Positions 8,960-47,682 of a stretch of 50,477 nucleotides of DNA are shown in pieces. The notes under the pieces were generated by a model. It was given only the letters and a program-made list of their open reading frames with translations, searched no databases and was not told where the DNA came from. A program made the translations under genes and the position numbers. Source of the stretch: a virus (taxonomy: Duplodnaviria > Heunggongvirae > Uroviricota > Caudoviricetes). The stretch lies in IMG/VR virus record IMGVR_UViG_2695420874_000004; one strand, 5' to 3'. Each line of letters opens with the position of its first letter. Position 1 is the first letter of the stretch.

Positions 8960-9526
8960 TCAGGGAGATTCATTGCTCTTATTTGCCGGAAATTTTCGAT
9001 AAATGGTAGAAACGCCTACATCAAAAATCAGTGCAATACGCTGTCTTGATTCTCCGGCCTCGAGTAAACGCCCAATCTGTGCCCACTGTTCGCTGGTCAA
9101 CTTAGGACGGCGTCCACCTACTCTGCCTTTAACACGAGCTGCAGCCAGCCCTGCCCTGGTACGTTCAACTATCAGTTCGCGTTCCATTTCAGCCAGGGCA
9201 CCCATGACATGAAAAAAGAAACGGCCCATTGGGGTACTGGTATCAATACTGTCAGTCAGGCTTCGGAAATTCACGCCACGCTGGCGCAACTCTTCTATCA
9301 GCGTAACAAGATGCCGCATACTGCGCCCCAACCTGTCCAGCTTCCAGACAACCAGCGTGTCTCCTGCCGATAGTGTCCTGAGCAGTTTTTTCAGCCCCGG
9401 TCTGTCGGACTTAGTGCCACTGATTTTGTCCTCAAAAATCCGCTCACATCCCGCGCAGTTCAGTGCATTACGTTGCAAATCGGTGTTCTGGTCATTTGTT
9501 GACACGCGTACATAGCCAATAAGCAT
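8960..9526 (-). CDS. Site-specific DNA invertase, Gin/Cin/Pin/Hin family serine recombinase
   Basis: MLIGYVRVSTNDQNTDLQRNAL...LVVWKLDRLGRSMRHL...GRFFFHVMGALAEMEREL... is near-identical in pattern to Gin/Cin; start trimmed to the Met aligning with Gin. Confidence 0.9.
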   Translation of the reverse strand: MLIGYVRVSTNDQNTDLQRNALNCAGCERIFEDKISGTKSDRPGLKKLLRTLSAGDTLVVWKLDRLGRSMRHLVTLIEELRQRGVNFRSLTDSIDTSTPMGRFFFHVMGALAEMERELIVERTRAGLAAARVKGRVGGRRPKLTSEQWAQIGRLLEAGESRQRIALIFDVGVSTIYRKFPANKSNESP

Positions 9527-9581
9527 GATCATCCCCCTGAATAAAAACCGGAGATGATGCCAGTTAGCCGTAATCTCTGCA

Positions 9582-9607
9582 TTTTCTTAAACGTTGGTTT
9601 GGGAGAA
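9582..9607. repeat. Invertase crossover site (gix/hix-like), left
   Basis: TTTTCTTAAACG TT GGTTTGGGAGAA: 26-bp site with two 12-bp half-sites; its right half is the reverse complement of the left half of the site at 11424..11449. Confidence 0.6.
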
Positions 9608-9943
9608 TTATCTCTGGCTGGCACTGCATCGGGTGTCATTGGTCTGAATGGGTATGTAACGATTCCGTTAATTATTTCAGGTTCCCGGAGAACACTGATT
9701 ATTCAGTGGGGGCAGGCGAGATTTGGTGGGTCTGGTGGTGAAGATGCCGGATATCTTAATGATTTTCCTTTTGCCTTTCCGTCAGCATGTTATGGAATGA
9801 TAGTTAGTCATGTGGGGCATACACCTTCAGGCGCAGGAATCCTGTCGGCTTCTGCAATTACATCAAATCAGTTCCGCGGTTTTTCAAGCATAGCGACTGC
9901 TGCAAACGCTGTATTAGGTCGTTATATCGCTATAGGGGTGTAA
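9608..9943 (+). CDS. Alternative tail-fibre C-terminal segment (promoterless in this orientation; 5' part supplied by H after inversion)
   Basis: ORF begins at the crossover site and ends 1 bp before the opposite-orientation assembly gene; Gly/Ser-rich fibre-tip-like composition. Coordinates approximate. Confidence 0.45.
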   Translation, partial: LSLAGTASGVIGLNGYVTIPLIISGSRRTLIIQWGQARFGGSGGEDAGYLNDFPFAFPSACYGMIVSHVGHTPSGAGILSASAITSNQFRGFSSIATAANAVLGRYIAIGV

Positions 9944-9944
9944 T

Positions 9945-10382
9945 ATGTTTTATAGTCCATCTTTAAACATTTTTGTGAATCCTGCACTTAAGGATGATTA
10001 CATTAATGCAAATTCATGGCCAGATGATGCTCTGGCTGTCAGTGATGATGTTTATAATGAATTTGCAATAAATACGCCCCCAGATGGCAAAATTCGTGTT
10101 GCAGGAGAAAATGGATTACCCACATGGGCACTAATACCTCCACCATCACATGAAGAACTTATTCAACAGGCAGAATCAGAAAGGCAATTATTGCTTAATC
10201 TGGCCAACGAATACATGAACAGTAAACAATGGCCCGGTAAAGCCGCTATTGGTCGTCTGAAAGACGAGGAACTGGCGCAATATAATTTGTGGCTGGATTA
10301 CCTGGACGCACTGGAGCTGGTTGATACCTCCAGTGGGCCAGATATTGAATGGCCTACGCCTCCGGCAGTTCAGGCCAGATGA
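9945..10382 (+). CDS. Alternative tail fibre assembly protein (G'/U'-like)
   Basis: 145-aa ORF; C-terminal ...LWLDYLDALELVDTSSGPDIEWPTPP parallels the C-terminus of the minus-strand assembly protein (...LDYIDAVTATDTSTAPDVIWPELP). Confidence 0.65.
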   Translation: MFYSPSLNIFVNPALKDDYINANSWPDDALAVSDDVYNEFAINTPPDGKIRVAGENGLPTWALIPPPSHEELIQQAESERQLLLNLANEYMNSKQWPGKAAIGRLKDEELAQYNLWLDYLDALELVDTSSGPDIEWPTPPAVQAR

Positions 10383-10956
10383 CATCCGGCGCTGTGCTGG
10401 TATCTGTTGCCGTCACCGCGTCAATGTAATCCAGCACAGTGTTAAGTCGGGTGGTCTCTGCCTGCATCAGCTGCCGCCCGGCCTGCAATTTAAGTTGAAT
10501 CAGACTAATGGAAGCCATTGCAGTATTAATCAGTGACTGACGCTGTACTTCTGCCGCGTCTACTGCGGCGCTATGCTGTGCCTCAGTATCGGTCACCCAT
10601 TTCTTACCATCCCATTTATCGAATGGCGTTAACGGGGCGATAGTGGTTGTATTTTCAGGATAATCACCTGGAGCTGTGATTTCTTTGGCGTCTCCCGTTT
10701 CGGTGTTATAGACGATTTCACCGCGATGGTCTGGCACATATTCCCATGAGTTTAAATCCATCGAACGGCAGATAGCATAACCCGCCTTATGTATACCAGG
10801 TTCATCCAGACAGGAATATGCAGGGATACCGACACCAATGGCAAGATATTCATTTGAAGTAGAAATATATTCCCGAGTTTTACCATCATAGTTATAGACG
10901 GTAATATTCCCCGCCTTCGTGGCAATAAGCTCGCTATTTAATACGGCGTTATCCAT
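10354..10956 (-). CDS. G: Tail fibre assembly protein (gpG-like)
   Basis: 200-aa ORF overlapping the H stop by 1 nt (ATGA); conserved assembly-protein C-terminus. Confidence 0.8.
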   Translation of the reverse strand: MDNAVLNSELIATKAGNITVYNYDGKTREYISTSNEYLAIGVGIPAYSCLDEPGIHKAGYAICRSMDLNSWEYVPDHRGEIVYNTETGDAKEITAPGDYPENTTTIAPLTPFDKWDGKKWVTDTEAQHSAAVDAAEVQRQSLINTAMASISLIQLKLQAGRQLMQAETTRLNTVLDYIDAVTATDTSTAPDVIWPELPEA

Positions 10957-12485
10957 TATGCAGCCCTCACGATATAGTTAAATGCAATATTTCGTGGACG
11001 GGTTTCACTCCCGCCAGTATTACCGATACTCCCTCGTGAATGAAGTGTCGGTGATGGGATCAGACTCCCTCCTGTATTTGTGGCATCAAGTCCCCGTCCT
11101 TGTGTGTATGTCTTTTTGAAAATCGTAGCCAGTTCCCATTCATCTTTTGTGTCGTAACCATCATTGGCAACAACAATATGGCGGTGTTTTTCCAGCATCC
11201 CTGTCTGAATGCTCAATAAAACACGTCCTGCATCAATACCGCGCCCGTCATCCCAGCCACGAATAAACTCACCACGTAAATCAGGCAATTTATTTGTCGG
11301 ATAAGCCTTTGCCAGTTCCGGGTATTCTTCAGCAGAAAAAGCCGCACCGTTGCATTTCAGCCAGCCTGTTGGCGGTGTGGCTGAAGGCCATGGAACAGGC
11401 ACACCAACAGGTAATGCAGAGCCTTCTCCCAAACCAAGGTATGTGAGAAGACCAGCTACATCCTTTCCACTCAAATTAGTCAGCGTATTGTCCAGCGGTT
11501 GTTTACCTGCCAGTGCATTAAGCATTGTCGTGGCAAAGTTCGGGTCATTCCCCAGCGCCGCCGCCAGTTCGTTCAGTGTATCCAGTGCCGCAGGTGCAGA
11601 ACCCACCATTGCTGCAATCGCCGATTTCACAAAAGCCGTGGTGGCAATCTGTGTATTGTTGACCGACTGTGCCGCAGTAGGTGCTGTTGGCGTTCCGGTA
11701 AGTGCCGGACTCGACAGCGGCGCTTTCAGTGCCAGCGCATTGTTAATGGTGGTGCTGAATTTCGGGTCATTGTTAATGGCTGCGGTTATTTCTTTCAGTG
11801 TGTCCAGCGTGGCTGGCGCACCATTAATAAGAGCCGTCAGTGCCGCCTGTACAAACGCGGTGGTCGCAACCTGCGTGGTATTATTCCCTGCCGCTGGCGT
11901 TGGCGCTTTGGGGGTTCCGGTAAATGTCGGGCTGGCTTTTGGCGCGTACTGTGAATGCGGATCTGGTGCGGCAAGGTGTTTTGCCATCAGATCATCCACA
12001 TACACCTTCAGCTCCAGTGCCTTGTCATCCACATACTTGCGGGTTGCCAGCACGACGGCAGGATCGATTTTCAGGGTGATATTGTCCGTGCTGCTGGTTA
12101 TCAGCACTATACGCACGGTCTGGGTGCGCCCGCTGCCTTCAGCCAGTTGCGGCTTATAGCTTTCCGGGCAGTTGCCCACGGCAATCAATGCCCCTGACTC
12201 ATCAAACAGGCCCACTTCACGTATCCACCAACCGCCCTCGTTTTCAGGGATCACCTGTTCAGCAATAATCTGGCTGCTGTTCTGCGGGTCGATATAGAGC
12301 ATATTCAGCGCAGCCCGGCGTTTCTCATTTACCAGTGCAGTCTGCTTTGCGTCCGGCGTCGGCAATGCTCCGCCGCCATCCCCCACCGCCATATGGGTAA
12401 TTTTAAGCGGCACACCAAGTGCAGTGGCGCTGGCAAGTTTCGCCGCACCAATCTCCGTCAGCAGGGTATAAAATTTTGTGCTCAT
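10956..12485 (-). CDS. H: Tail fibre protein (gpH-like), constant N-terminal part fused to variable C-terminal part
   Basis: 509-aa ORF with phage fibre-like repeats; the gix-like site at 11424..11449 falls inside the coding sequence. Confidence 0.85.
   Translation of the reverse strand: MSTKFYTLLTEIGAAKLASATALGVPLKITHMAVGDGGGALPTPDAKQTALVNEKRRAALNMLYIDPQNSSQIIAEQVIPENEGGWWIREVGLFDESGALIAVGNCPESYKPQLAEGSGRTQTVRIVLITSSTDNITLKIDPAVVLATRKYVDDKALELKVYVDDLMAKHLAAPDPHSQYAPKASPTFTGTPKAPTPAAGNNTTQVATTAFVQAALTALINGAPATLDTLKEITAAINNDPKFSTTINNALALKAPLSSPALTGTPTAPTAAQSVNNTQIATTAFVKSAIAAMVGSAPAALDTLNELAAALGNDPNFATTMLNALAGKQPLDNTLTNLSGKDVAGLLTYLGLGEGSALPVGVPVPWPSATPPTGWLKCNGAAFSAEEYPELAKAYPTNKLPDLRGEFIRGWDDGRGIDAGRVLLSIQTGMLEKHRHIVVANDGYDTKDEWELATIFKKTYTQGRGLDATNTGGSLIPSPTLHSRGSIGNTGGSETRPRNIAFNYIVRAA
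11424..11449. repeat. Invertase crossover site (gix/hix-like), right, inside the fibre gene
   Basis: TTCTCCCAAACC AA GGTATGTGAGAA; its first 14 bp equal the reverse complement of the end of the 9582..9607 site. Confidence 0.6.
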
Positions 12486-14909: not shown

Positions 14910-14957
14910 GAGAGCGATCCTTGCACAACCGGGTGGAGTGATGTAATACAGAGCGTA

Positions 14958-14975
14958 TGTATGGAGAACCACACA
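14958..14975 (-). promoter_or_regulatory. Possible Ogr-type late promoter dyad upstream of V
   Basis: TGTATGGAGAACCACACA is a TGT-N12-ACA dyad; spacing to the V start is short, so the assignment is tentative. Confidence 0.3.
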
Positions 14976-15004
14976 AAAGAGAAACAATTTCTAAGGTATT
15001 TAAG

Positions 15005-15871
15005 ATGACACAAATCGCAATTTATGGATTTAATTTCACTAAAAAAATCACATTTGACGGTGGTGAGTTAACTCCTATTTTCAGTTCATGGAGTGAGTTA
15101 AAAAAAAATGGCTGGGCTAATGATAGGTACATCCTCACTGGTTTTTTCAAACCAAACTCGAATAACTACGCCACTCAACAGCAGCTTATTTTTGATTTAC
15201 AAGCAGTTCTTAGTTTTATTGAACAAAAAAATGTAATCATTTCAGGAGAACTTGAAAATGATGAAACCCCTTTCAATTTCAAACCATCTCTACCCAAAAA
15301 GCTTGACAAAAAAAGAGATAAGGGTGCGGGCATTATCATCATGGAAGATTATTTTGCACCAAACAGCCGAGAAAATTTTATTTGCTTAGCCATGGAAAAA
15401 CTAAATAGTAAAGCCATGCTAAAACAAGATGCCTTTAGAACATCATTTTTTAAATCAATGCTAGCTTTCCGCGACTCAATAAATTATATCGACGTCAGAT
15501 ATTATTTATTATTCTCGGCACTAGAAGCACTTTGCAGATTTATTAAAAATGACTACTCCCCTGCCAAAACACCACAAATAATTACTCAGGTTTTAAAAGA
15601 ATATGGTTTTAATGTCGAAAAAACAGGACATACATTAGCTCAAAGAAACATTATGCATTACTGCAAACTCCGTCACTCGCTGTTCCACAATGGTAAATAC
15701 ATTGCCTATCTTGATGAAAAAAACTCAGATGGCACAATTGAAATTCAAGATTACTCATCAAATTTGAATTTACTGGTGCCACTTGTACTAATGAAATTCA
15801 TAGGATTTGATGACAATTATATAAACTGGGACTCATGGATTGATAGGAATCCATTTATCAGTAAAAAGTAA
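15005..15871 (+). CDS. Hypothetical cargo protein (289 aa) in the S/V (P2 orf30) variable locus
   Basis: Clean AT-rich ORF on the opposite strand to the flanking tail genes, with AAGG ribosome-binding-like sequence upstream of the ATG at 15005; no motif I recognise. Confidence 0.7.
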   Translation: MTQIAIYGFNFTKKITFDGGELTPIFSSWSELKKNGWANDRYILTGFFKPNSNNYATQQQLIFDLQAVLSFIEQKNVIISGELENDETPFNFKPSLPKKLDKKRDKGAGIIIMEDYFAPNSRENFICLAMEKLNSKAMLKQDAFRTSFFKSMLAFRDSINYIDVRYYLLFSALEALCRFIKNDYSPAKTPQIITQVLKEYGFNVEKTGHTLAQRNIMHYCKLRHSLFHNGKYIAYLDEKNSDGTIEIQDYSSNLNLLVPLVLMKFIGFDDNYINWDSWIDRNPFISKK

Positions 15872-24752: not shown

Positions 24753-25442
24753 TCATATGAGACGACCGTCTGGACTTCTGTTACCTAAATGTAATTCACA
24801 GAGTATCCACCTAATCACATCAGGTCGAATTAACCCAGCTACAAAAACCGAATTCCAATTATTTTTACCTTTATGTTTTTCATCCAACAGCAACAACTCG
24901 CGAGTCAACAACTCATATACATCGCTATAAGTAGAAAGACTCTTATTCAGTCCTCTAATAACAAGCTCAGGATATAAGTAAAACGACTCCCATTGTTCAG
25001 ACAAATACCCCTTAATATTATTCTTGATAACAACATTATCAAGATGATACTTAACATTGTTATATTCTGGTGACATTGGGTCAATTATGATTTTTACATC
25101 AATTGTAGGTGTTCGCCCTAATTTAGAAAAATTAGCACATATTAATCTTTGTTTTAATATATTATCAAAATATGGATGCAGCATCCGATGGCCTGCAGAA
25201 TTAGCTATAGTAGTACTTTTGAAAGTATTACATTTGCAAGCAGGAACCAAATTCTTAGTGAATAAAGAAAATTCTGGATAGTTTTCCTTGGGTAAAACAT
25301 GATCCAAAGTCCCGCTATGCATTGAACCACACATTGGACATAGAGAGTTAGAATTAGCTGCTCTTATATCATCAATTATAGATAAACACTTTGCGGGATT
25401 GTTATAATAATATCTCAAAGCTTCAGCAATATTGTTACTCAA
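24753..25442 (-). CDS. HNH endonuclease-like protein (candidate Septu PtuB-like effector)
   Basis: CPMCGSMHSGTLDHVLPKENYPEF...NLVPACKCN has the C-x2-C / DH / N / C-x-C-N arrangement of HNH nucleases; AT-rich; no ATG at the 5' end (probable TTG start). Confidence 0.7.
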   Translation of the reverse strand: MSNNIAEALRYYYNNPAKCLSIIDDIRAANSNSLCPMCGSMHSGTLDHVLPKENYPEFSLFTKNLVPACKCNTFKSTTIANSAGHRMLHPYFDNILKQRLICANFSKLGRTPTIDVKIIIDPMSPEYNNVKYHLDNVVIKNNIKGYLSEQWESFYLYPELVIRGLNKSLSTYSDVYELLTRELLLLDEKHKGKNNWNSVFVAGLIRPDVIRWILCELHLGNRSPDGRLI

Positions 25443-25616
25443 TACGCCACAAGAATTGACATTAAGATACCCTTTATTCTTTATGTACGATCTATATGCA
25501 TTAAGTATAAATGTATCCTGTTCATTCAGAACAGAATGATGTTTTAATCTCTTATTTGCAGATAGTTTTTAAATGCAGAATAATCTTTAAAAACAGGTCT
25601 TTTTAATTTATTCATT

Positions 25617-27266
25617 TCAATTGCCCATTTCATTTCTCAACGCAGTTAATACATTAAGTGATAAGTCCTCGCTATATTTAGATTCAACATCATCCCAAGA
25701 CATATTCTTTGCAATTATATTATTTTTTACTTTATTTAAAATTTGAGTTGGTTCACTCTCACCGAAAACAAAATATGAGATATTTCCTATATTCGCCCCA
25801 AAAGTACTCAATCTCGGTTTTTCGCTAACAATTACCCCATCATCTCGTCTTCTGAGTATTGTCACTTGCTCCTTAAAAACCTCCCGAACAAGATAAACCG
25901 AATGCGTTGCTATGATAGCTGAAGAGCCTGTCTTTTCTAATAAATTATCAAGCAATGCCATAAATTTATTAATAAATGAAGGATGGAGATGTGTTTCTGG
26001 CTCATCTATTAATAGAAGAGTCCCATTCTCAATATACAAACAGACTTGTACACAAAACTTAATAAACGATATTTCCCCACTACTCAAAGGATAACATTTA
26101 TTTTCAATAAGCCTCAAAGGCTCGCCAGAGAGAATAATTTCAGAATATAATGATAGTCTGGATTCTTCGCCTCGAGAATTAAGCTCATTTAATTTAACAA
26201 ATGGTGAATTTTCACCGTTACATTTGATTACTAAATCGTTGTTACTATTTAGAACACTCAGTGCATCAACAAATATATTCCACCTTTGATTATAGCCGAT
26301 AGCGTCGTTACTCCTCGCTAGTTGCACTATTAAATCATTCAAGTTTAATTTGGATTTTGATTCACGATTTAAAGTCAATCTTTTGTACCATATCAATGAT
26401 TTTATTCTTTTATCGGTTGGAAATGAACACTTACTTTCATTTGTTGGAGAAAAAGCAATGAGCCTACTAATTTGAATTCGTTCTTCAATGCTCACACCGT
26501 TAGAATCAACTACAGCCACCAAATTATCCTTTCCTTTAATCGCAGCCAATGCGATTTCTCTAAGCGTTTGGCTTTTTCCTACACCATTCTCGCCTATAAT
26601 TATGGAAATTCTTTTTGGTAAATCATGCTCGTGATCAAAATTAAAAACATAAGATACATCTTCTTCATTAACTTTATTCGAATAGCTAATCTTGATGTGC
26701 TGTGATAAATTACCCAACTCCTCATATTGAATACCGGAAAGAACTGTTCCTGCATTTTTGAAAGTAAAATACGACTCAGACTCTCTAATGAAAGATTTAT
26801 TAAAGATATCAGAAGAGATTGCTTTTTTCCTCAAATTCTCTGCACTAGCGTCACTTTTCTTAGAAACAACATCATTAATGAAATTTAATATATATTTGGA
26901 TTCATTCACCCCAAAAAATCTTACTAGTCTTCGATAATTATTCATATCCTGAAGCATGACAAAATAATCATTAAACCCCTCATCCTTTAAATTAGATTCT
27001 TCCTTTTTCTTCACTCGCCTTATCAGTTCTGCTTTTCCATTTCGTTCCTCCTCTGAATTCAAAAAACCAATATAACCATTCAGTGAAATTATATCCTTAC
27101 ACTCTTTTTTATTAAAAATAGATATTTCGACTCTACTCAAATATCCAAAATCATTCCAATCGCTTCTTGATGGGACTATTTTTATATAATTACCAGAATC
27201 AGATATCTGTTGATTATTTGTAATTAAAAAATATAAACTATAATTTTTATTTTTCTTGACTAACAT
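25617..27266 (-). CDS. ABC/AAA15-type ATPase (candidate Septu PtuA-like) with about 200-aa N-terminal extension
   Basis: Walker A IIIGENGVGKSQTL, ABC-signature-like LSSGE, Walker B/D-loop LLLIDEPETHLHP; AT-rich. Confidence 0.8.
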   Translation of the reverse strand: MLVKKNKNYSLYFLITNNQQISDSGNYIKIVPSRSDWNDFGYLSRVEISIFNKKECKDIISLNGYIGFLNSEEERNGKAELIRRVKKKEESNLKDEGFNDYFVMLQDMNNYRRLVRFFGVNESKYILNFINDVVSKKSDASAENLRKKAISSDIFNKSFIRESESYFTFKNAGTVLSGIQYEELGNLSQHIKISYSNKVNEEDVSYVFNFDHEHDLPKRISIIIGENGVGKSQTLREIALAAIKGKDNLVAVVDSNGVSIEERIQISRLIAFSPTNESKCSFPTDKRIKSLIWYKRLTLNRESKSKLNLNDLIVQLARSNDAIGYNQRWNIFVDALSVLNSNNDLVIKCNGENSPFVKLNELNSRGEESRLSLYSEIILSGEPLRLIENKCYPLSSGEISFIKFCVQVCLYIENGTLLLIDEPETHLHPSFINKFMALLDNLLEKTGSSAIIATHSVYLVREVFKEQVTILRRRDDGVIVSEKPRLSTFGANIGNISYFVFGESEPTQILNKVKNNIIAKNMSWDDVESKYSEDLSLNVLTALRNEMGN

Positions 27267-35264: not shown

Positions 35265-36296
35265 ATGGAAAAAAGCATTAGCACATTTATGTACCTATCC
35301 GTTTTATTAGGTTGTATATTCTTATTTATAAAATATCGACTTTATGTTCTCGATCATAGAAGCTTGTTCCAACAACCCTTGTTCTGGGCTGCAATAGGCC
35401 TACCTTTATTCACCAGCCTTTACTTTGGTTCTTTTGTCTGGATAGATAAAATACACTCTTTTAGTCTTACAAGTCACGGTTATGAGAGATTTTTAGATAT
35501 CTCGAAATTACCATTACTCATCCTTGCATCTGCAGTACCTTTAGTTTCAATAGTAAACAACCTACACAGAACCAAACAAACAGAAAAACAGATCTCAGAG
35601 GCAGAAAGGAAAAACAGGGTAGATTTATATTACAACCACATGAAATTTCATCTTGATTTATATAAAAAAATCGAAGGGAAAAGAATAGGCAGCTACTACC
35701 CGGTTCAGGAAGCTCAAGCTGAAGCAATCTACCAACATTTTATAAAACATCCACAAGAACTATATAGAAAAGCATACCCACAATCTACGCCTGATGATTC
35801 TCAACAATTAGATATTAATGAGCAATTTGTTATTGATTTACACAAATGTTGGGTAGAAATCAACGCAAGACTCAAGCAATTATCCGAGAGTGAAAATCAA
35901 ATACATCCTACAGAGGAACTTTGCACAACAAAGATGAGAATATTTGTAGGAGTTATGATTATTTATGAAAAAACTTGTAAACTGTTGTGTTTAGGTGGAT
36001 TTCATTATAAAAAGTCATTTGTAATAAATGATAGTTATAATAAATACCAAGTTTATTCACCATTTTATGATTTTGGCACTCTGTACGAATCACTGCAATC
36101 CTTAGAAGAGATAACCTACGCCTTCTTGGATACTTGCAGAAATGAAGTGGTAAACTTGTACTTCCCTATAGAAGATAAAATTTTGATATATGGTGAAGGG
36201 ATTCTAGAGAATTGGTTCAAGTATTCTCAGTTCTTGATCACTATAGCTTATCAACCCGCCAAGATGTCTCGCTTACCCCAGCTGAGACGCGATTGA
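35265..36296 (+). CDS. Hypothetical membrane-anchored cargo protein between int and attR
   Basis: 343-aa AT-rich ORF starting 2 bp after the int stop; two N-terminal hydrophobic helices (LSVLLGCIFLFI, LFWAAIGLPLFTSLYFGSFVW) and a large soluble C-terminal part. Confidence 0.65.
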   Translation: MEKSISTFMYLSVLLGCIFLFIKYRLYVLDHRSLFQQPLFWAAIGLPLFTSLYFGSFVWIDKIHSFSLTSHGYERFLDISKLPLLILASAVPLVSIVNNLHRTKQTEKQISEAERKNRVDLYYNHMKFHLDLYKKIEGKRIGSYYPVQEAQAEAIYQHFIKHPQELYRKAYPQSTPDDSQQLDINEQFVIDLHKCWVEINARLKQLSESENQIHPTEELCTTKMRIFVGVMIIYEKTCKLLCLGGFHYKKSFVINDSYNKYQVYSPFYDFGTLYESLQSLEEITYAFLDTCRNEVVNLYFPIEDKILIYGEGILENWFKYSQFLITIAYQPAKMSRLPQLRRD

Positions 36297-36412: not shown

Positions 36413-36457
36413 ATGTAGGAATTTCGGACGCGGGTTCAACTCCCGCCAGCTCCACCA
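36413..36457. repeat. attR of the P2-like prophage / attL of the downstream island: partial ssrA 3' end
   Basis: Exact 45-bp copy of 1016..1060. Confidence 0.75.
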
Positions 36458-36582
36458 ATTTTTGATATATTGAAGTTCAGTGAAGTCTATCAAGCCCGCA
36501 TGGAACCAGCCTTGCGGGCTTTTTTACGTCTATAGTAGTCTACCGAGAATTGCTAGAATCTACTCGTTATGGCACCCTTTTT

Positions 36583-36627
36583 GGGACCCAACACAAAGGG
36601 TCCAAAACATGAGGGTCCCAAACATGG
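36583..36627. repeat. Three tandem 15-bp imperfect repeats overlapping the island integrase start codon
   Basis: GGGACCCAACACAAA / GGGTCCAAAACATGA / GGGTCCCAAACATGG in direct succession; the third contains the int ATG. Confidence 0.4.
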
Positions 36628-37853
36628 CAAAAATCGCTAAGAAGCTCACTGACACTGAAATCAAAAGCACCAAACCTGCCGAGAAAGAGGTTAACCTTTT
36701 TGACGGCGATGGTTTGCTCCTGCGAATCGCCCCCTTAGCGAAGGGAGGAAAGAAAAATTGGTATTTCAGATATGCAGTGCCTGTGACCAAAAAGCGAACT
36801 AAGGTGAGCTTAGGAACCTATCCTCACCTTACACTTGCGAAGGCACGAGCTTTACGTGATGAGTACTTGTCGTTGCTTGCAAATGGTATAGACCCACAAG
36901 TTCATAACACCCACAAAGCCAATGCCCTTAAGGATGCAACGGAACATACATTTCAAGCAGTAGCCAAGAAGTGGCTTGATGAGAAAGTCAAAACGTCAGG
37001 CATCTCCCAGGATCATGCTAACGACATCTGGCGAAGCCTAGAGAGAAATATCTTTCCAACGTTGGGTGATACCCCCATTAAGGAGATTCGCCCTAAAATG
37101 CTTAAACAGCATTTAGACCCCATAGAAAAACGAGGTGTCCTTGAAACACTTCGCCGCGTCATATCCCGCCTGAATGAAATTTTCCGCTATGCAGCAACAG
37201 AAGAACTCATAGAATTCAATCCGGCTGACAACCTGGGGCAACGGTTCAGCAAGCCAAAAAAACAGAATATGCCAGCATTACCCCCTTCCGAACTCCCCCG
37301 CTTCCTGGTTGCTCTAAACAATGCTTCTATCCGTTTAGAAACAAGGCTACTGATTGAGTGGCAACTTCTCACATGGGTTCGCCCTGGTGAAGCTGTTCGC
37401 ACAAGATGGTCAGATATTGATATAGAAACCAGCATGTGGAACATCCCGGCGGAGTTTATGAAAATGAAGAAGCCTCACAAAGTTCCACTGAGCAAAGAAT
37501 CTTTGCGAGTCTTGGATTCAATGAAAGCCATCAGCGGGCATAGAGAGTGGGTTTTTCCCAGTATCAAAGCTCCACTCAATCACATGCATGAACAAACAGC
37601 TAATGCGGCTATAATCCGTATGGGCTTCGGAGGTGAGCTTGTAGCTCATGGTATGCGATCAATCGCTAGAACGGCGGCTGAGGAGTGTGGCAAGTTTAGA
37701 ACTGATGTCTTAGAAGCCGCCCTTGCCCACTCGAAAAAAGATGAAATAATTGCAGCCTACAATCGTGCAGAGTATCTCACAGAACGTGTGGTTCTCATGC
37801 AATGGTGGAGTGACTATGTTTCGTCTCAAAAATACAAAGTTATTGCCGCATAA
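36624..37853 (+). CDS. P4-type tyrosine integrase (CP4-57 IntA-like)
   Basis: N-terminal LTDTEIKSTKP...GDGLLLRIAP...WYFRY arm-binding region and blocks DIWRSLERNIFP, QKKNMPAL, AHGMRSIARTA, EAALAH, AYNRAEYL, MQWWSDYV shared with IntA as I recall it. Confidence 0.9.
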   Translation: MAKIAKKLTDTEIKSTKPAEKEVNLFDGDGLLLRIAPLAKGGKKNWYFRYAVPVTKKRTKVSLGTYPHLTLAKARALRDEYLSLLANGIDPQVHNTHKANALKDATEHTFQAVAKKWLDEKVKTSGISQDHANDIWRSLERNIFPTLGDTPIKEIRPKMLKQHLDPIEKRGVLETLRRVISRLNEIFRYAATEELIEFNPADNLGQRFSKPKKQNMPALPPSELPRFLVALNNASIRLETRLLIEWQLLTWVRPGEAVRTRWSDIDIETSMWNIPAEFMKMKKPHKVPLSKESLRVLDSMKAISGHREWVFPSIKAPLNHMHEQTANAAIIRMGFGGELVAHGMRSIARTAAEECGKFRTDVLEAALAHSKKDEIIAAYNRAEYLTERVVLMQWWSDYVSSQKYKVIAA

Positions 37854-38135
37854 CTCTTCCATGATGGGTTAACTATCTTGATTTATTTGAAGAATTAATG
37901 ATCACACCATTAACCTATGTGGACTAAGCATAGCCATTTACAAATGGGTACCTTGAGGCCACATAACGAAAGCTGTCGGTCATATCAGCTAAATAATTCA
38001 CATCTCTTCTCGATTATCATACACCTCGAAGAACTACCAAATTCGCTCTAATCAATGATAAAACAGTTGAATTCGGTTAAAATTTGATCAATTTTATCCT
38101 CTACATTGTATTGAATCATCCATGAGGTTTTGTGC

Positions 38136-39692
38136 ATGGCTAGCGGAAATGAAAAAAATCATAGAGTTAGGGTCGCACAGTACTTGAGGATGTCTACCGA
38201 CCATCAGCAATATTCTTTACATAATCAGTCTGAATATATCAAAGATTATGCTGAAAAGAACAATATGGAAATCGCTTATACCTACGATGATGCAGGTAAG
38301 AGCGGAGTCAGTATCGTAGGCAGGCATTCTTTGCAGCAGTTACTTAGCGATGTAGAACAAAAGAAAATAGATATACAGGCTGTATTATTTTATGATGTGA
38401 GCCGTTTTGGTCGTTTTCAAAATAGTGATGAAGCTGCATATTATTCCTTTCTATTTGAAAGAAATGGTGTAGATCTTATATATTGTTCCGAACCTATACC
38501 CACTAAAGATTTCCCTTTAGAGTCCTCTGTTATACTGAATATAAAAAGATCAAGTGCTGCATATCACAGCAGGAATCTATCTGAAAAGGTATTTATAGGG
38601 CAAGTAAATTTAATAAAGCTTGGTTATCATCAAGGCGGTATGGCTGGTTATGGGCTGAGACGTCTTTTAGTAGACGAAAATGGCATAGCTAAAGAAATAT
38701 TGAATTTCCGCAAAAGAAAGAGTATTCAAACAGATAGGGTAATATTAATTCCGGGACCAAAAAATGAAATAAAAATTGTAAATAGAATCTATGATCTCTT
38801 TATAGATAGTAACGTCCCAGAATTCATTATTGCTGAGAGATTAAATGAACAGAGCATACCTGCAGAAAATGGAACATCATGGACTCGTGCAAAAATACAT
38901 CAAATTTTGACAAATGAAAAATATATTGGAAACAACATATATAACAAAACCTCATCTAAACTAAAAAGTAAGCTTGTAAAAAACCCCAAACATGAATGGA
39001 TTAGATGTGACAAGGCATATAAACCAATTATTTCAAAGAAAAAATATAATAAAGCTCAAGAAATAATTCAGCTCCGATCCATTCATTTGACTAATGAAGA
39101 TCTATTAGAAAAGCTAAAAGAAAAATTAGAATCTAATGGAAAACTATCAGGCTTTATCATTGATGAAGATGATACAGGCCCTTCATCTTCTGTTTATAGA
39201 ACCCGATTTGGTGGTCTTTTAAGAGCATATACTTTGATTGGTTATAAGCCAGAACATGATTACAGCTATCTCCAAATAAATGAAGCACTAAGATCATTTT
39301 ACTCAGAGATAATTGAGGATTTTAAGGGCGAAATATTAAAAAGTAACTGTCATATAGACGAGTATAAATATTACCCAATGCTTTACATCAATGATGAGTT
39401 TTTAATTTCCGTCCTTGTTACTAAATGCATACATATGAAATCAGGTAAACTTAGATGGAAAGTCCGGTTTGATAACTCACAGAAAGCAGACATAACAATT
39501 GTTATACGAATGAATTCACAAAATATTTCACCTCTTGATTTTTATATCATACCAAAGATTGAAAACGAATATAGTAAAATGTGTATGATGGAAACAAACA
39601 ACATTCGGTTAGATCTCTATAGATTTGATAATCTTGATAAATTTCTACAAATTATTACTCGCATGAAAGTGAGGGAACTATATGCTGCCTGA
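38136..39692 (+). CDS. Large serine recombinase
   Basis: N-terminal resolvase-type catalytic region VAQYLRMSTDHQ...YDDAGKSG...R followed by a long recombinase extension; total about 518 aa. Confidence 0.8.
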   Translation: MASGNEKNHRVRVAQYLRMSTDHQQYSLHNQSEYIKDYAEKNNMEIAYTYDDAGKSGVSIVGRHSLQQLLSDVEQKKIDIQAVLFYDVSRFGRFQNSDEAAYYSFLFERNGVDLIYCSEPIPTKDFPLESSVILNIKRSSAAYHSRNLSEKVFIGQVNLIKLGYHQGGMAGYGLRRLLVDENGIAKEILNFRKRKSIQTDRVILIPGPKNEIKIVNRIYDLFIDSNVPEFIIAERLNEQSIPAENGTSWTRAKIHQILTNEKYIGNNIYNKTSSKLKSKLVKNPKHEWIRCDKAYKPIISKKKYNKAQEIIQLRSIHLTNEDLLEKLKEKLESNGKLSGFIIDEDDTGPSSSVYRTRFGGLLRAYTLIGYKPEHDYSYLQINEALRSFYSEIIEDFKGEILKSNCHIDEYKYYPMLYINDEFLISVLVTKCIHMKSGKLRWKVRFDNSQKADITIVIRMNSQNISPLDFYIIPKIENEYSKMCMMETNNIRLDLYRFDNLDKFLQIITRMKVRELYAA

Positions 39693-40578
39693 AAAAAATG
39701 AATTCCCAATAATTCAAATTGAGATTGCAAAAATAAAATTTCTTAACCCACGAACAAGAAATAAGGTAGTGCATGAAGAAATAAAGGAAAGCATAAAAAA
39801 AAGAGGATTAAGCAAGCCTATAAGCGTAAGAGCTATTGATGAAGACGATTTCAAATATGCTTTAATTTGTGGTCAAGGGAGAATAGAGGCTCTTGTTGCA
39901 TTAGGTGAAACTATTATTCCAGCAATTATAAGAGATGTATCAGAAGAAGATGCTTACGTTATGAGTTTAGTTGAAAACATTGCAAGGAGAAGACCACGTT
40001 CTAATGAGTTATTACAGGTGATTAAAGACATGAAAATCAGAGGACTTTCAGACTCCGAAATAAGTGAGATTACTGGATATTCATCGAACTGGGTGAGCAG
40101 TATTAATATGCTTCTTGATAAGGGAGAGCATAAACTTCTCTCAGCAGTCGAACGGGGTAATTTGCCTCTGTATCTCGCAGTGCAATTTGCAAGATGTGAA
40201 ACTGAGGAAGCACAAGATATTCTTACCGAAGCATATGATAAAAAATTAATAAAAAGTCGGGACATTATAAAGATAAAATACATTCTAAATCAAAGAACAG
40301 TTGGGAATAAAGGTGCAAAAGCAGCCGGATTTTATTATCACAAACCATCAAAAAGGATGACTGCAGAGGAGTTGATTGAGCTTTATGAAAATAGTATCGC
40401 TGAACATAAATCTGTTTATAACAACTCGAAATTTATAAAAACCAATCTACTAATAATAAATGAGATTTTTAACATCATAATGATGAATAAAAGCTTTCAA
40501 AATATACTTGAACAAGAGAATCTTTCAGAACTACCATCTCAGATATTAAACCCAGTAAACAAAGAGGTATCAAAATGA
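39682..40578 (+). CDS. ParB-like (ParB/Srx-fold) protein 1
   Basis: PISVR...YALICGQGRIEA...MSLVENIARR plus HTH-like GLSDSEISEITGYSSNWVSS match the ParB N-terminal domain pattern; overlaps the recombinase stop. Confidence 0.7.
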   Translation: MLPEKNEFPIIQIEIAKIKFLNPRTRNKVVHEEIKESIKKRGLSKPISVRAIDEDDFKYALICGQGRIEALVALGETIIPAIIRDVSEEDAYVMSLVENIARRRPRSNELLQVIKDMKIRGLSDSEISEITGYSSNWVSSINMLLDKGEHKLLSAVERGNLPLYLAVQFARCETEEAQDILTEAYDKKLIKSRDIIKIKYILNQRTVGNKGAKAAGFYYHKPSKRMTAEELIELYENSIAEHKSVYNNSKFIKTNLLIINEIFNIIMMNKSFQNILEQENLSELPSQILNPVNKEVSK

Positions 40579-41471
40579 TTCAGATACGTTTTGGCAAAAA
40601 TTTTATTTACCTGGAAACTAATAAGTTAATTCCATCTAAGGAATTATTAGAAAACGTAAAGCGAAGCCATAAATATCATCAAATAGTTACCTCTATCGAA
40701 AGCTTGGGTATTATTGAACCAATAATAGTATTCTATGACAAAGATAAAGATGTCACTAAGATACTTGATGGCCATTTAAGGGTTGAGGCTTTAAAAGACT
40801 TAGATATAGAAAAAGCTCCATGTATACTTTCGAGCATAGATGATGCTTTCACTCCTAACAAACAAGTGAATCATATAAATGTAGTTGAAGAACATAGAAT
40901 GATAATTAAGTCTCTGGCAAAAGTATTAATTGAAAAACTTAGTGCTGCTTTGGGCATATCTGTTGATGCCATAAAAGATAAAGCTAATGTGATGAACGGC
41001 ATAGATCCAAGTGTAATTGCGAAACTTTCTGATAAACCTATACCTAAGGCTACATTTGACGTTTTGAGGAAAATGAAGCCAATTCGTCAAATTGAAGCAG
41101 TCGGTACAATGATTAATTTTGATAATTATAGTAAAAAATTTGCAATGAGCATCTTGGATGCAACACCGTCATCGATGATAGTAAATAAAGGGAAAAACAC
41201 TCCCTATAAAAAGGACATAAAAAAAACCATACTTCGTCTGGAACAAGAAATGGCAACAACTTCGGAAGAAACGAAAAAACTTCAAACCGAGTATGGTTCA
41301 GATATGTTGAAATTCGTTATAATCCAGTCATATATTAATAAATTACTTGGCAACTCTAAAGTTCTTCATTGGTTCTTAGAAAACGAGGTTGATTATCTTA
41401 ATGAGTTAAAAAGAATTTCTAGAATAAATTCTTTGGATGATAAGACTCTTACTGAAAACAGCCAGTCATAG
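40575..41471 (+). CDS. ParB-like (ParB/Srx-fold) protein 2
   Basis: IIEPIIVF...ILDGHLRVEALKDL resembles the ParB N-terminal motif; overlaps the upstream stop (ATGA). Confidence 0.6.
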   Translation: MIQIRFGKNFIYLETNKLIPSKELLENVKRSHKYHQIVTSIESLGIIEPIIVFYDKDKDVTKILDGHLRVEALKDLDIEKAPCILSSIDDAFTPNKQVNHINVVEEHRMIIKSLAKVLIEKLSAALGISVDAIKDKANVMNGIDPSVIAKLSDKPIPKATFDVLRKMKPIRQIEAVGTMINFDNYSKKFAMSILDATPSSMIVNKGKNTPYKKDIKKTILRLEQEMATTSEETKKLQTEYGSDMLKFVIIQSYINKLLGNSKVLHWFLENEVDYLNELKRISRINSLDDKTLTENSQS

Positions 41472-42523
41472 TCATGGTTTTATATAGCCTAAATAAACCA
41501 AGAAGTATACTTACACAACGACCTTCACGCCGAAGAAGCTGTCAGATACGCCAGCAACCAAAGCATTGCGTTTAAGAGTCAGTCATTGATACGAAGGGAT
41601 AACTGCGTATCAGCAGCCGGACATTGAGTCGAATAAAGGCTGGTAGAGAGGGACAGTTCTGTGTCACCGGGAGATTAGTCAGAAACATCAGCGGCAGAAC
41701 AGATGAACCAGCAATTGGTAGTGTACAGAAAACTCTCCAGTATATAATTATTCAACTTAACACTAAAAAAAATCACATAGTTAATATCATAATTTTTCTT
41801 TGGTCTACTTATGCGAGAGATATTGTGGCTTCAACCTGGTATTAGGAGTCGTTTCAGATAAAAGATGTTCTTCGATTCGACTGGACTTGGTAATAGCAAT
41901 AAGTAATCGTGAATATTGAAGGACGAAAGGCTACTTCAAAACAAAGTAACCTTTCCAATATTCCCATATATGGGACAAGTGGCACATTAACTGCACATAG
42001 TGCAGGATACATATGACATAAAACTTTTTATTTATGGCATACATTAAGAATAACTTTTATTTTACGAATGTCAATAGGCTCTTGCTTAATACTTTTAAAA
42101 TAATTAATTGATTTTTTATTATAGCTTCGCTTGTACAAGCGAAGATCCTATTGTTCTTGAATGAATAATGCCAATTATAAAAGAAGCAAGGGCTAACCCT
42201 ACGAAGCCGCTGCGCTTGTTTCTTTGGGTTCCCCTTGCTTTTCTTCCCTTCGGTTAGAAAAGAAAATCCAGCCCAGTTTATCAACTATCTACAGTATTCC
42301 CACTAAAGAGTAACCGCCACTTTATACTCCGTTTGTGAGCTGAGGCTACTGTAGCATTTTTGGGTTTAAATTTTCTATCATTACCAGTTGTTGTGTCGGG
42401 ATAAAAATATTTTCTCGCATCCAACCATAAAGATATCAGATTTGCTATCATCATCACTTCACATAATGAAACTTTTTAAGTAGGCCTAAAATACAAGGCC
42501 TACTTAATAGCCGGAGATAGTTA

Positions 42524-43429
42524 TTATTTAGATGCTAAAATAGTATTTTTATTGAATTTTTCATCAGCATCTGTAAGCTTTTTCATTATTAAAGCAGGGG
42601 CTATATCCTGAAGCTCCGTAGATTTTATGAAAAAATAATTACAAAGGTAAATTATATTATTAAGATTAATTGGTATATCAATATTATAATCTAACATTAA
42701 CGATAACAAACGATCTCTGTCAATTCTATAAAACTTTTTACCAAGCTCTTTCTCATTAATTATTGAAATTATCTTTTCATCAAGCTTATCGTCCATTCTC
42801 AATCTTAATTTATTTCTTAGCATAGCGGACCATGCGCTTGACTTATAATTTCTATATGCTAAATCCTCAAATAACTTCATTATTCCCCAATCAGATGTTT
42901 CCAAAGAGGCGTAAATTCCATTCAGCGCGCGACTAAGGTCATTATGCTCAACCCAATCCTCTTTGCACTTATAGCGTAGATCATGCTCAACTTCATGCCA
43001 TCCTTCAGATAAAATAGTTCTAAATTGGACTTCAAAAGTAGTATCAATATAAGAATATTTCTTTAATAAGACACTATCATTTGATAATACTTCTGGTAAC
43101 TTAAAGACGTAATTGCATCGAGTTGCCGCAAAGAGATTAGCCGTGGTTTCGTCTACGGTTTTAGATTCAATTTCGAATAATTTCTCCAGTGTTTTTTGAG
43201 CAATAAATAAATCATCAGGAAAATATAATATTATCCTAACCCCAAATAAGTCTTGAATTTTTTTACCATCCTCTGAGTATTTATTAGGCTCTTTTTCATA
43301 TTTCTTAATTATTGAGCTTTCTGATTTTGTCCTCGAAAAAAAACGATAAAGTAATCCAATACGATTAAGTTCATCTTCTATATCTTTTTGCAAACTTTGA
43401 ATAATTCGCAATTCATTCCCGTTATACAT
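42524..43429 (-). CDS. RelA/SpoT-like nucleotidyltransferase (small alarmone synthetase / toxSAS-like)
   Basis: Three synthetase-fold motifs in order: SRTKSESSIIKK (GRxKS-type), DLFGVRIILYF (D-x-x-G-x-R), FEVQFRTILSEGWHEVEHDLRYK (E-x-Q-x-R-T...H...Y-K); about 140-aa C-terminal extension. Confidence 0.7.
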   Translation of the reverse strand: MYNGNELRIIQSLQKDIEDELNRIGLLYRFFSRTKSESSIIKKYEKEPNKYSEDGKKIQDLFGVRIILYFPDDLFIAQKTLEKLFEIESKTVDETTANLFAATRCNYVFKLPEVLSNDSVLLKKYSYIDTTFEVQFRTILSEGWHEVEHDLRYKCKEDWVEHNDLSRALNGIYASLETSDWGIMKLFEDLAYRNYKSSAWSAMLRNKLRLRMDDKLDEKIISIINEKELGKKFYRIDRDRLLSLMLDYNIDIPINLNNIIYLCNYFFIKSTELQDIAPALIMKKLTDADEKFNKNTILASK

Positions 43430-45534
43430 CAGAAATTCCTCCCAAGAATTGCTTTAATCTCTGATATTCTTGCCATGTTAAGTTCAAGGAACGAACGCTT
43501 GTCTGGCGTAAGTAAAAGACCGTCTTTCCTCAATTTATCTAAAGAATGGAGTATTTCACTTAACTGAAATTGATTGTTGTTAGAACATAAGCCTTTTATA
43601 GGCCGATGCTTATGATAGCTAACACTCCCTCTGGGACAGAACTTCTCTAAGATGTAAATATCACAATCTGTAATATCGTGATCATTTTCACTGTTTATCT
43701 CGACAGATTTTTTATTAATAGCATCATTGTCACATTCACATCCCAAAAAATAAATATCTTCCCTACCACTTAATTCGTTAAAACTACAATCTATAAAAGA
43801 ACAGTTCACGAATGTAACGTTTTTATAATTACCACAGGTAAATATGCTGCTAAAAAACGAACAATCAACAAAGATAGTATCATGTATTATATTTATATCG
43901 CCTAAAGAAAGTTTTGATATAGACAATTGCTCAACACTATCATTTTTTAAATCTAATGGAACTTTTCCTATAAGCAAATGACTATAAAGGATTTTATCAT
44001 TACCTGACATAAAATATAAAGCAAACTCTAAGCTATGCCAAAGTAATTCTTTTTCATCATCGATCCTCGGCATATAAGATTGCACTGCTGGTTCTATAAA
44101 ACGTTTATCACCAATCCATTCATTTGACTTATCATTAATAATATTTTCAGAAACAAAATTACCAAGAACAAATTCATTAACAAATCCAATACCTTGGTTT
44201 TCTGAGCCTGACCGATCTAATAGAGCATGCGATGCTAATTTATTAACTAATTCGTCAGTAGTTGGTCTTTCATCTACAGTATAAAGCTTTCTTGTAGCCT
44301 CCAAGAGTTGTTGATTCTTTTCAGTTATGACTAACGATATATACTCTCTAGACTCAGATGTGTAGTTACCCTCGACCATGTCGTCAGCTATTATTTTTAG
44401 TATAGTATATTGATCTTCAATAGACATTAATAAATCTTGTCTTTTTCTTTCTCGCTCAAGCATTGAATCAAAATACTTCCTCACTATAGTTGTTGGGTCG
44501 CTTATAACTTTATTAAAGTCGGTGTCGTCGATGCATCTTAGAAATGATAGCAGTACAGGGTTTGATAATTTGTTAAGAGGAAATCCTGTCGATGAAATTT
44601 CATCTAAACGTTGACCTGGAAGCCAGTCTTCAATTTGTGGTTCATGAATTCTTATTCTTATCACATCAAAATCTTCTTGATGTGATGCTATCCACTGATG
44701 GAATTCATCTCCGTCAAATATAGCTGTTCTTCGAGTTGTCAAAACCACTTTTGCACTATCAGTTAGAAGCTCACTTATTGTTTCCAGCATTGGCTCTGTT
44801 TTTTCATAATTATTTTCAATTCCGTTTGTACTTTCATGCAATAGTTCATCAAACCCGTCAAGTATAACTGGTACATTTCCTGCTCTTATTTCATTCCTTA
44901 CTAAGGCTGAGCTTAACAAAGGAAAACTTCTATCAATTTCATCTAATAGTACATACCTGAATATTTTTGCTTGCCTATTCCTTGATAGTTCTGAAAATAA
45001 TGGTATTTTCCCTATATTGTTAACTATAATCTCCCTCAATAATTCATACGCCGTGCAAGTCTTTCCAAAACCGGCTGCAGCCTCAATCAAAAACAGAATT
45101 GGACGCCTATGTTGTATTCTCTCTAATATTTCCGTAACAACACTAGCTTCGCCAATAACACCATTTAAGTAATATTTTGAATTTATGTAGGAATAAGTTG
45201 CAGTAGGTGAGTGAATTTTTACAATTGAATCTGTGAAAGTATTATAATCTTTAATCAACCTTTCTTTAGTTGAATCGACGCTAAAGAAGCCATTAAATAA
45301 TTCCTTATGTGCTTCTTCATAAGACTGATATTTTTTAATTTGACATGCATAACCTAACTGCCTATATTCTTCAAAGGTTTGATTTACATTAACCTCATTA
45401 TTTAGTGGAAGTATGTCCGCGTTATGGTAGTGCCCTGTTTTAATAGAATATACAGCAATACTTTCGTTACCTGTATTTTCTTCAGTAAAACCAAACCTTT
45501 TATATATCTCTGTAAGTTTGCTTTTTCGTAACAT
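43429..45534 (-). CDS. NACHT-type STAND NTPase with repeat-rich C-terminal region
   Basis: Walker A LIEAAAGFGKTCTA and NACHT-type Walker B VPVILDGFDELLH; C-terminal Cys/Phe-rich repeat-like region; start set to the ATG at 45532..45534, which has a strong AGGAGGT Shine-Dalgarno 7 nt upstream. Confidence 0.8.
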   Translation of the reverse strand: MLRKSKLTEIYKRFGFTEENTGNESIAVYSIKTGHYHNADILPLNNEVNVNQTFEEYRQLGYACQIKKYQSYEEAHKELFNGFFSVDSTKERLIKDYNTFTDSIVKIHSPTATYSYINSKYYLNGVIGEASVVTEILERIQHRRPILFLIEAAAGFGKTCTAYELLREIIVNNIGKIPLFSELSRNRQAKIFRYVLLDEIDRSFPLLSSALVRNEIRAGNVPVILDGFDELLHESTNGIENNYEKTEPMLETISELLTDSAKVVLTTRRTAIFDGDEFHQWIASHQEDFDVIRIRIHEPQIEDWLPGQRLDEISSTGFPLNKLSNPVLLSFLRCIDDTDFNKVISDPTTIVRKYFDSMLERERKRQDLLMSIEDQYTILKIIADDMVEGNYTSESREYISLVITEKNQQLLEATRKLYTVDERPTTDELVNKLASHALLDRSGSENQGIGFVNEFVLGNFVSENIINDKSNEWIGDKRFIEPAVQSYMPRIDDEKELLWHSLEFALYFMSGNDKILYSHLLIGKVPLDLKNDSVEQLSISKLSLGDINIIHDTIFVDCSFFSSIFTCGNYKNVTFVNCSFIDCSFNELSGREDIYFLGCECDNDAINKKSVEINSENDHDITDCDIYILEKFCPRGSVSYHKHRPIKGLCSNNNQFQLSEILHSLDKLRKDGLLLTPDKRSFLELNMARISEIKAILGRNF

Positions 45535-46373
45535 TAAACTCACCTCCTGATATTTTTCGCAATGATGCTATAGTCGCTGTATGAACTTTTAATATAATAT
45601 TACAAAAACCATCTACATAGCTACCGCCTAAGCAATAATAGCTATGTAGAGATTATCTGTAAGAGAACAGTTCAACGGTTACGTGCACGTTATGACATCG
45701 TTCTAACTTCATGGGGTGCTCAGTAACAGAACTTTTAAGCCATTCTTGCTCGCTGAACATGCAGTCATACCTATCACAAGCAGTACAACCATTACTTAGC
45801 AGACCTCTGCTTCTTGTTCCAAAAGGAACGTAAACCAGATGTTAGAGTTAACAAAACTGAAAGCCACTGCCCCCCAAATCTCCAAGTCAAACATTAGAGA
45901 CTTTAAGTGAGCTCAGCCCAGATTATGCATTCTAATCAATTTCCAAATAATCAATCGGGCTAAGCCGTGGTGGTCATCGCGCCAATCCCCATAATGAAGG
46001 ATACATCTTGGCTGTATCATCTTCCTTACAGCTGCGTTTCAACATGTGCTGAACAACACTCAAGTTAATGTAAATGAGCCAGTGAATACAACATCTGTTT
46101 CAAATCACTTTGAAGTTTTCTTCACTTAATGTGTACGCCAAAATTATCCGGATAAACATAGAGTAACGGTCGACCGGGATTACAATCAACCAGTTTCATC
46201 TCTAGTAAGCGATATTCTTATGGCGGCAGCGGAATGTTCTGACAACCCCACTGAGGCGGTGCTACAGAATCTTATCGAAGCCAAACATCAGCTACGTTTC
46301 CCTAGATGTTAAAATCAGTAGTCGCAGGGCCAATGCTAATGATCCACACATTGACCGTGAAGGGGCCTTTCAG

Positions 46374-47668: not shown

Positions 47669-47682
47669 AAAGGAGAACGCCC

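Follow-up and report, generated by a model that had tools for sequence, protein, structure and literature searches.

The stretch analysed here, IMG/VR virus record IMGVR_UViG_2695420874_000004, is 50,477 bases long and is referred to throughout as the window. Positions 8,960 to 12,485 hold a DNA invertase gene, two crossover sites and a tail-fibre gene with alternative ends. This cassette very probably functions as a site-specific inversion switch of the Gin/Cin type that acts on the tail fibre, and it is carried by a complete P2/186-family prophage of Escherichia coli. It is a switch of a kind already known, in other words an ordinary and well-understood phage DNA switch. This follows from the presence of near-identical cassettes in dozens of public genomes, from a fibre that has already been named "variable" and from published flipping in P2-like prophages. 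A sequence-only reading of the window had proposed that the segment inverts, and the proposal has been borne out in nature. The same cassette is arranged as in the window in E. coli ST12468 and is inverted in E. coli ST95-32.

The sequence-only reading placed inverted 26-base-pair (bp) gix-like sites at 9582..9607 and 11424..11449. An independent repeat search returned the same pair as its top inverted repeat (26 nucleotides (nt), 81% complementary, 1816 nt between the arms). Scanning the whole window with a cix/pix-type degenerate consensus (TTCTCNNAAACCAAGGTTTNNGAGAA, at most 3 mismatches) matched these two places and no others, and 0.00 matches were expected from 100 dinucleotide-preserving shuffles. 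The segment spans 1868 bp if both sites are counted and 1842 bp from one crossover dinucleotide to the other, and its earlier description as 1.9 kb is thus fair. It was also correct that one site lies inside the fibre gene. The right site occupies about codons 346-354 of 509. Its core (positions 13-14) is AA and the core of the left site is TT on the plus strand, which makes the two cores identical in inverted orientation, a prerequisite for strand exchange by a serine invertase. Identity extends to the inner half-sites (TTCTCCCAAACC). Therefore, inversion would regenerate both sites. On the coding strand, 9 nt of the inner half-site (GGTTTGGGA) specify Gly-Leu-Gly in both reading directions.

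What if there were additional sites, as in the shufflon-like design of one enteropathogenic E. coli (EPEC) prophage? No third crossover site was found in or near the cassette with the full-site pattern (at most 3 mismatches) or with a half-site pattern (at most 2 mismatches). This indicates a two-site, two-state design.

In-silico inversion of 9594-11437 converts the 509-amino-acid (aa) fibre (LLTYLGLGE-GSALPVG at the junction) into an open, in-frame fibre of 465 aa (LLTYLGLGE-LSLAGTASG). Its stop codon is at 9941-9943 and the gene for the 145-aa chaperone follows. The earlier prediction that the fibre C-terminus and its chaperone would be exchanged for a pair on the opposite strand therefore holds. 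A Gp53-like tip joins the constant part, with a Caudo_TAP chaperone gene downstream, and the check on the reading frame proposed with that prediction gives an open fibre rather than a frameshift. A protein of the same length is encoded by E. coli ST95-32 (WP_113446437.1), which agrees with the predicted fibre at 456 of 465 residues (98%) and has the same YLGLGELSLAGT junction.

Both orientations are represented among 5,426 complete E. coli genomes. The predicted post-inversion junction (301 nt, with the alternative tip fused to the constant part) was matched over at least 80% of its length in 27 genomes, with identities of up to 99.0%. In 48 genomes the reference junction with the alternative tip next to the invertase occurs, and the reference fibre junction occurs in 479. 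Two loci were compared directly, those of ST95-32 (L001) and ST12468 (L002). These have the same invertase (WP_021514975.1), the same two chaperones (WP_000368086.1 and WP_021514927.1) and common sheath and baseplate proteins, with the segment oppositely arranged. By BLAST, ST95-32 is collinear with the window inverted in silico (97.7% over 3699 nt), and ST12468 with the window as sequenced (97.7%). Where window and strain differ in orientation, the inverted block corresponds to window positions 9594-11440, and the alignments overlap only at 9594-9607 and 11424-11440, inside the 26-bp sites. The segment thus exists in both orientations with its breakpoints at the sites, as seen between strains. 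The features of the cassette are collected in Table 1.

Table 1. Features of the inversion cassette, in window coordinates.
Feature	Coordinates	Strand	Remarks
Serine DNA invertase, Gin/Cin/Hin/Pin subfamily, 188 aa (from the likely start)	8960..9526	-	Outside the segment; Resolvase and HTH_7
Enhancer-homologous stretch (putative Fis-dependent)	9437..9508	-	5' end of invertase gene; homology to P1 enhancer
Left crossover site, cix/gix-like, TTTTCTTAAACG-TT-GGTTTGGGAGAA	9582..9607	.	Gap between invertase gene and segment
Invertible segment, limits at central dinucleotides TT 9594-9595 and AA 11436-11437	9594..11437	.	BLAST breakpoints against ST95-32
Silent alternative fibre C-terminus (Sv', 115 aa from shared GLGE)	9596..9943	+	Gp53-like_C PF21882, E 8.7e-13; tail-fibre PHROGs
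Silent alternative assembly chaperone (U', 145 aa)	9945..10382	+	Caudo_TAP, E 2.4e-33; phrog_188 tail fibre assembly, E 1e-59
Currently expressed assembly chaperone (P2 G / Mu U counterpart, 200 aa)	10354..10956	-	Caudo_TAP, E 3.8e-31; phrog_105, E 2e-96
Whole fibre gene, 509 aa	10956..12485	-	Phage_tail_fib N-terminus and Collar
Currently expressed fibre C-terminus (Sv, 159 aa), tail Collar domain	10956..11437	-	PF07484, E 4.3e-15
Right crossover site, TTCTCCCAAACC-AA-GGTATGTGAGAA	11424..11449	.	Within fibre gene, coding LLTYLGLGE
Constant fibre N-terminal part (Sc, ~350 aa), P2 H N-terminus counterpart	11438..12485	-	Phage_tail_fib, E 6.8e-65

The same alignments reveal something about the history of the segment. 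Positions 9594-11440 are 99.7-99.8% identical to ST95-32 and ST12468, compared with 96.0% on the invertase side and 95.3-95.4% on the constant fibre side. Because its identity exceeds that of both flanks, this suggests that the segment has a more recent common origin than they do and has been exchanged as a module.

The enzyme beside the segment had been called Gin/Cin/Pin-like, and its domains and closest relatives agree. The open reading frame (ORF; 8960..9532, minus strand) matches Resolvase (PF00239, E 1.7e-52, residues 5-137) and HTH_7 (PF02796, E 5.8e-16, residues 140-183). Its product is 74.6% identical to Mu Gin, 78.6% to P1 Cin and 98.9% to the invertase of the P2-like Klebsiella phage KP12. 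Alignment with the Mu Gin chains 3UJ3 and 4M6F of the PDB is end to end from the second ATG (E 8e-93, residues 1-184). This agreement with the Gin N-terminus makes the second ATG, at 9526, the likely start. The catalytic-serine motif VRVSTNDQ (serine at position 9-10) is identical to that of Gin and MLIGYVRVSTNDQ is the same as in Gin. The wild-type Met114 is kept, a position at which both crystallised Gin chains have Val. Judged by its sequence, then, the enzyme belongs with the Gin/Hin/Cin/Pin family and the arrangement with the Mu G and P1 C class of cassettes. A terminator-like hairpin upstream of the gene (9565-9546, minus strand) was considered as possible insulation of the invertase from late read-through. 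It was dropped, as the folding of 9527-9610 (minus strand) is indistinguishable from that of shuffled sequences (z = -0.93).

Inversion by enzymes of this type is assisted by an enhancer in P1, the record of which annotates a 72-bp "enhancer of Cin-mediated C-segment inversion" beginning 19 nt into cin. Positions 9437-9508 (minus strand) align with it without gaps at 78% identity, and with Mu at 72%. The stretch contains two 15-mers of the form G-N13-C, 49 bp apart and in the register seen in Mu, and the centre of the nearer one is about 97 bp from the crossover point. All of this is consistent with a Fis-dependent recombinational enhancer. These bases also code for the best-conserved portion of the invertase, and their conservation is therefore no proof of an enhancer function.

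Each of the two fibre tips has its own Caudo_TAP chaperone gene downstream. The two pairs are convergent on opposite strands, and the 3' end of the 200-aa chaperone gene overlaps U' by 29 nt. These chaperones are 36% identical across their C-terminal 80 aa. Some chaperones of related E. coli cassettes are annotated tfaE. The interval 9608..9943 on the plus strand, which the sequence-only reading had assigned to the alternative pair, is by Pfam a Gp53-like fibre C-terminus. The tips themselves are unrelated. Comparing Sv with Sv' by blastp gives no match even at an E value of 10, and their Pfam domains differ, which is consistent with different adsorption specificities. The Collar tip has relatives in 1202 phage records. 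The silent Gp53-like tip has them in 17 of 50,697, each less than 60% identical. Perhaps this tip and its short chaperone serve a receptor that is not represented among studied phages, a tentative idea that is more doubtful than probable. If it were true, the switch would open an uncharacterised host range, which would be a new specificity and not a new mechanism.

Two further observations concern the fibre gene. RefSeq calls the silent fibre end a free-standing gene for a "gp53-like domain-containing protein" (window 9554-9943; 2158-2544 in L002). As annotated, this gene begins at an ATG that precedes the crossover site and runs through the site. This stand-alone gene is an annotation artefact typical of invertible cassettes; the sequence in fact supplies the fibre gene with an alternative, exon-like 3' end. 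The case illustrates an artefact that recurs at such loci. The second observation is that fibre residues 181-340 (window 11466-11945) align over 160 aa with the constant part of P1 tail fibre S at 79% identity, in a region that the P1 record describes as repeated elements a/b. This P1-like stretch is a further case of fibre mosaicism between unrelated phages.

How would the switch operate? The late operon V-W-J-I-H-G on the minus strand would always transcribe the 350-codon constant part and then whatever follows the site at 11424-11449. In the sequenced orientation this would lead to expression of the Collar tip (159 aa) and the 200-aa chaperone, and the other strand would hold the Gp53-like tip (115 aa) and 145-aa chaperone, silent and without a promoter. 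If Gin, Hin and Cin are a guide, invertase dimers would bind both 26-bp sites, and the sites would probably be brought together with an enhancer, bound by Fis, within the 5' part of the invertase gene. Cleavage with a 2-bp stagger at the AA/TT cores, rotation of one half-site pair by 180 degrees and religation would then join the constant part in frame to the other tip, with the other chaperone now downstream. As a consequence of such tip switching, a population of lysogens would release two kinds of virion that differ in their receptor-binding tip. If Mu and P1 are a guide, the two tips probably mediate attachment to two kinds of host.

The closest of the classical systems is the C segment of P1, with its invertase Cin and its sites cixL and cixR. 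The in-gene site matches cixR at 20 of 26 positions (manual count) and has the same AA core and GGTAT half-site. In sequence, the two sites resemble P1 cix, with its AA core, more than Mu gix, with its GA core. The constant part of the fibre (79% identity with P1 Sc across 160 aa) and the enhancer stretch (78%) are alike as well. However, cin runs toward cixL, which overlaps the 3' end of the gene, whereas the corresponding site here is upstream of the invertase gene. The P1 segment is also larger (4.2 kb) and its variable tips are unrelated to those of the cassette.

The G segment of Mu and its invertase Gin share the overall plan: a constant fibre part, an in-frame site within the gene, two convergent pairs of tip and chaperone, and an invertase gene outside the segment. 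In Mu, as here, the second site is about 55 nt upstream of the invertase start, with a spacer that is partly alignable, and within the 5' part of the gene the Mu enhancer region aligns with the stretch described above. The differences are that the Mu segment is about 3 kb rather than 1.8 kb, that its core is GA rather than AA, and that Mu is a transposable phage whereas the phage carrying this cassette is P2-like. Homology of the variable tips and chaperones to the variable parts of either phage was considered and rejected, as tblastn detected no similarity to Mu S, S', U or U' or to the variable parts of P1.

Comparisons can also be made by description with Pin and the P segment of e14 and with Hin and the hix sites of Salmonella, which have an invertase of the same subfamily and the same 26-bp type of site. 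The same is true of Fin of Fels-2. However, Hin flips a promoter and not coding ends, and e14 is a defective lambdoid element.

Precedents are also found among P2-like phages. The invertible tail-fibre loci of P2-like prophages in E. coli E2348/69, an EPEC strain, flip constantly, with both orientations stably co-existing as judged by sequencing and polymerase chain reaction (Goldberg et al., 2014; PMC4272514). At the P2 Z/fun hotspot, DNA invertases have been reported to be common, with neighbouring genes inverted (bioRxiv 10.1101/2024.10.15.618418). The E2348/69 loci and the present cassette have in common the phage family, the genomic slot (between fibre chaperone and sheath) and the two-state design. 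Some P2-like loci have three sites and four states, whereas this cassette has two sites. Its pairing of a Collar-type with a Gp53-like tip is one of many mosaic combinations.

A direct link to the published flipping through E2348/69 itself was considered and rejected, because the one homologous place retrieved from that genome (L005) is a rearranged locus and not a simple cassette. The link is therefore by family and not by an identical locus. At L005 4151-5574 (NC_011601 873369-874792), a constant fibre part that stops at the crossover site lies directly against a truncated virion-morphogenesis pseudogene, and V-W-J-I-H form a block that is inverted with respect to the R and S genes. Read from its sequence, L005 is a larger rearrangement with one end at an invertase crossover site.

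Dozens of E. coli genomes in RefSeq have an annotated cassette that is nearly identical to this one, as do phages, for example 500465-1, KP12 and Cartapus. By megablast, the same kind of cassette with an annotated DNA invertase is found in the isolated Escherichia phages 500465-1 and Cartapus, in a P2-like phage from O157:H43, and in the Klebsiella phages KP12 and the Kp48xx series. The exact 509-aa fibre is present in a public collection of 15 billion proteins, in which one source label is "phage variable tail fiber protein" (NCBI).

The cassette belongs to a prophage whose limits can be drawn. Going by its sequence the window is E. coli chromosome, and its right flank is 100% identical to strain MRE162. 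The gene for transfer-messenger RNA (ssrA, tag ANDENYALAA) is at 698-1060. Its last 46 bp form part of the evidence for the borders, as they recur as an exact direct repeat (1016-1061 and 36413-36458). These repeats read as the attachment (att) sites of a complete 35.4-kb P2/186-family prophage inserted in ssrA. Domain matches of the P2-like (Peduoviridae) type include Tail_P2_I, sheath, GPD, GPA, CI repressor and integrase, and megablast finds P2-like phages. On the minus strand the genes are arranged as in P2: D, U, T, E, FII, FI, cassette, G, H, I, J, W, V. Given this order, the cassette occupies the Z/fun slot, between the fibre-assembly gene G and the sheath gene FI.

Some observations weigh against the cassette being a working switch. 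The left site is the poorer match to the consensus (position 12 is G and not C, and the outer end reads TTTT). A simple sigma-70 scan gave no promoter upstream of the invertase; over all, it returned fewer sites than it did for shuffled sequences. Conservation of the enhancer stretch is confounded by the strong coding constraint on the N-terminus of the invertase. The exact 465-aa hybrid is absent from the 15 billion public proteins, which counts for little because the fibre allele has been seen on only 2 contigs. Could the parts still be recognisable but inversion have been lost in this strain, through a degenerate left site or poor expression of the invertase, so that the differences in orientation record ancient events? 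The off-consensus left site and the lack of a promoter-like site in the scan would fit. So would the fact that homologous cassettes are interrupted by IS421 or IS1A in some E. coli genomes (NZ_CP047277, NZ_CP060065), from which it follows that a fraction of related switches is probably disabled. However, the invertase ORF is intact and has its catalytic motif, and among the top-listed genomes with the cassette the left-site region is conserved at 98.3%. In addition, near-identical prophages with identical invertases occur in both orientations, split 48:27, and homologous loci flip continuously in culture (PMC4272514). Loss of inversion is therefore improbable, and a working switch is the preferred reading.

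Another idea concerns the beneficiary. The switch might be kept mainly for the host, as part of a tailocin-like weapon or through an invertase acting in trans, with phage host range not being the selected function. In genomes that match the region, the number of related places has a median of 2 and reaches 9, which makes cross-acting invertases likely, and host use of P2-type tails has been discussed in the literature (PMC4272514). However, the prophage retains its capsid, terminase and portal genes, those for the replication protein GPA, a CI-type repressor and the integrase, and intact att repeats, so that it has the look of a viable phage and not of a tailocin. Such a role is quite unlikely, and it would alter only who benefits and leave the mechanism unchanged. 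The weakest idea, that RecA-dependent recombination between the inverted repeats or assembly errors produced both database orientations, is barely credible: inverted repeats can in principle recombine or confuse assemblers, but the longest identical stretch of the two sites is 14 bp (the 12-bp inner half-site and the core dinucleotide). A stretch of this length is much too short to let RecA recombine the sites efficiently or to cause complete genomes to be misassembled, and the breakpoints coincide with the recombinase core.

Elsewhere the prophage and its surroundings carry further genes. Two cargo genes (24753-27266, minus strand) lie between the portal and replication genes, at the P2 old/tin hotspot. 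One encodes a 549-aa AAA ATPase that matches PADLOC PDC-M01A (E 2e-55) and is also PtuA-like, and the other a 229-aa partner that matches PDC-M01B (E 9e-32). Together they are a candidate anti-phage defence pair. A 304-aa ORF (14957-15871, plus strand), opposite the tail genes and just past the baseplate gene V, matches one PHROG (phrog_4373, unknown function, E 2e-142) and nothing in Pfam or PADLOC, and may be a moron-type cargo gene. An ORF is also found at the equivalent position in E2348/69, a likeness of position alone. Between the integrase gene and the right att repeat is a 343-aa ORF (35265-36296, plus strand) that matches phrog_17460 (unknown function, E 5e-203), with no Pfam match. 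Directly after the prophage, a second integrase (457 aa, Arm-DNA-bind_3 and Phage_integrase) opens an island at the old ssrA att site (36480-50477). Matching genomes annotate NACHT-domain, ankyrin-repeat, relaxase and recombinase genes in this island. The second integrase and the island indicate that two elements have integrated in tandem.

Beyond correct annotation, the significance of the cassette is small. It does show that a programmed inversion of the classical type is recognisable in the bare sequence. Nevertheless, anyone who uses the strain for phage typing or therapy should expect two types of virion from this prophage.

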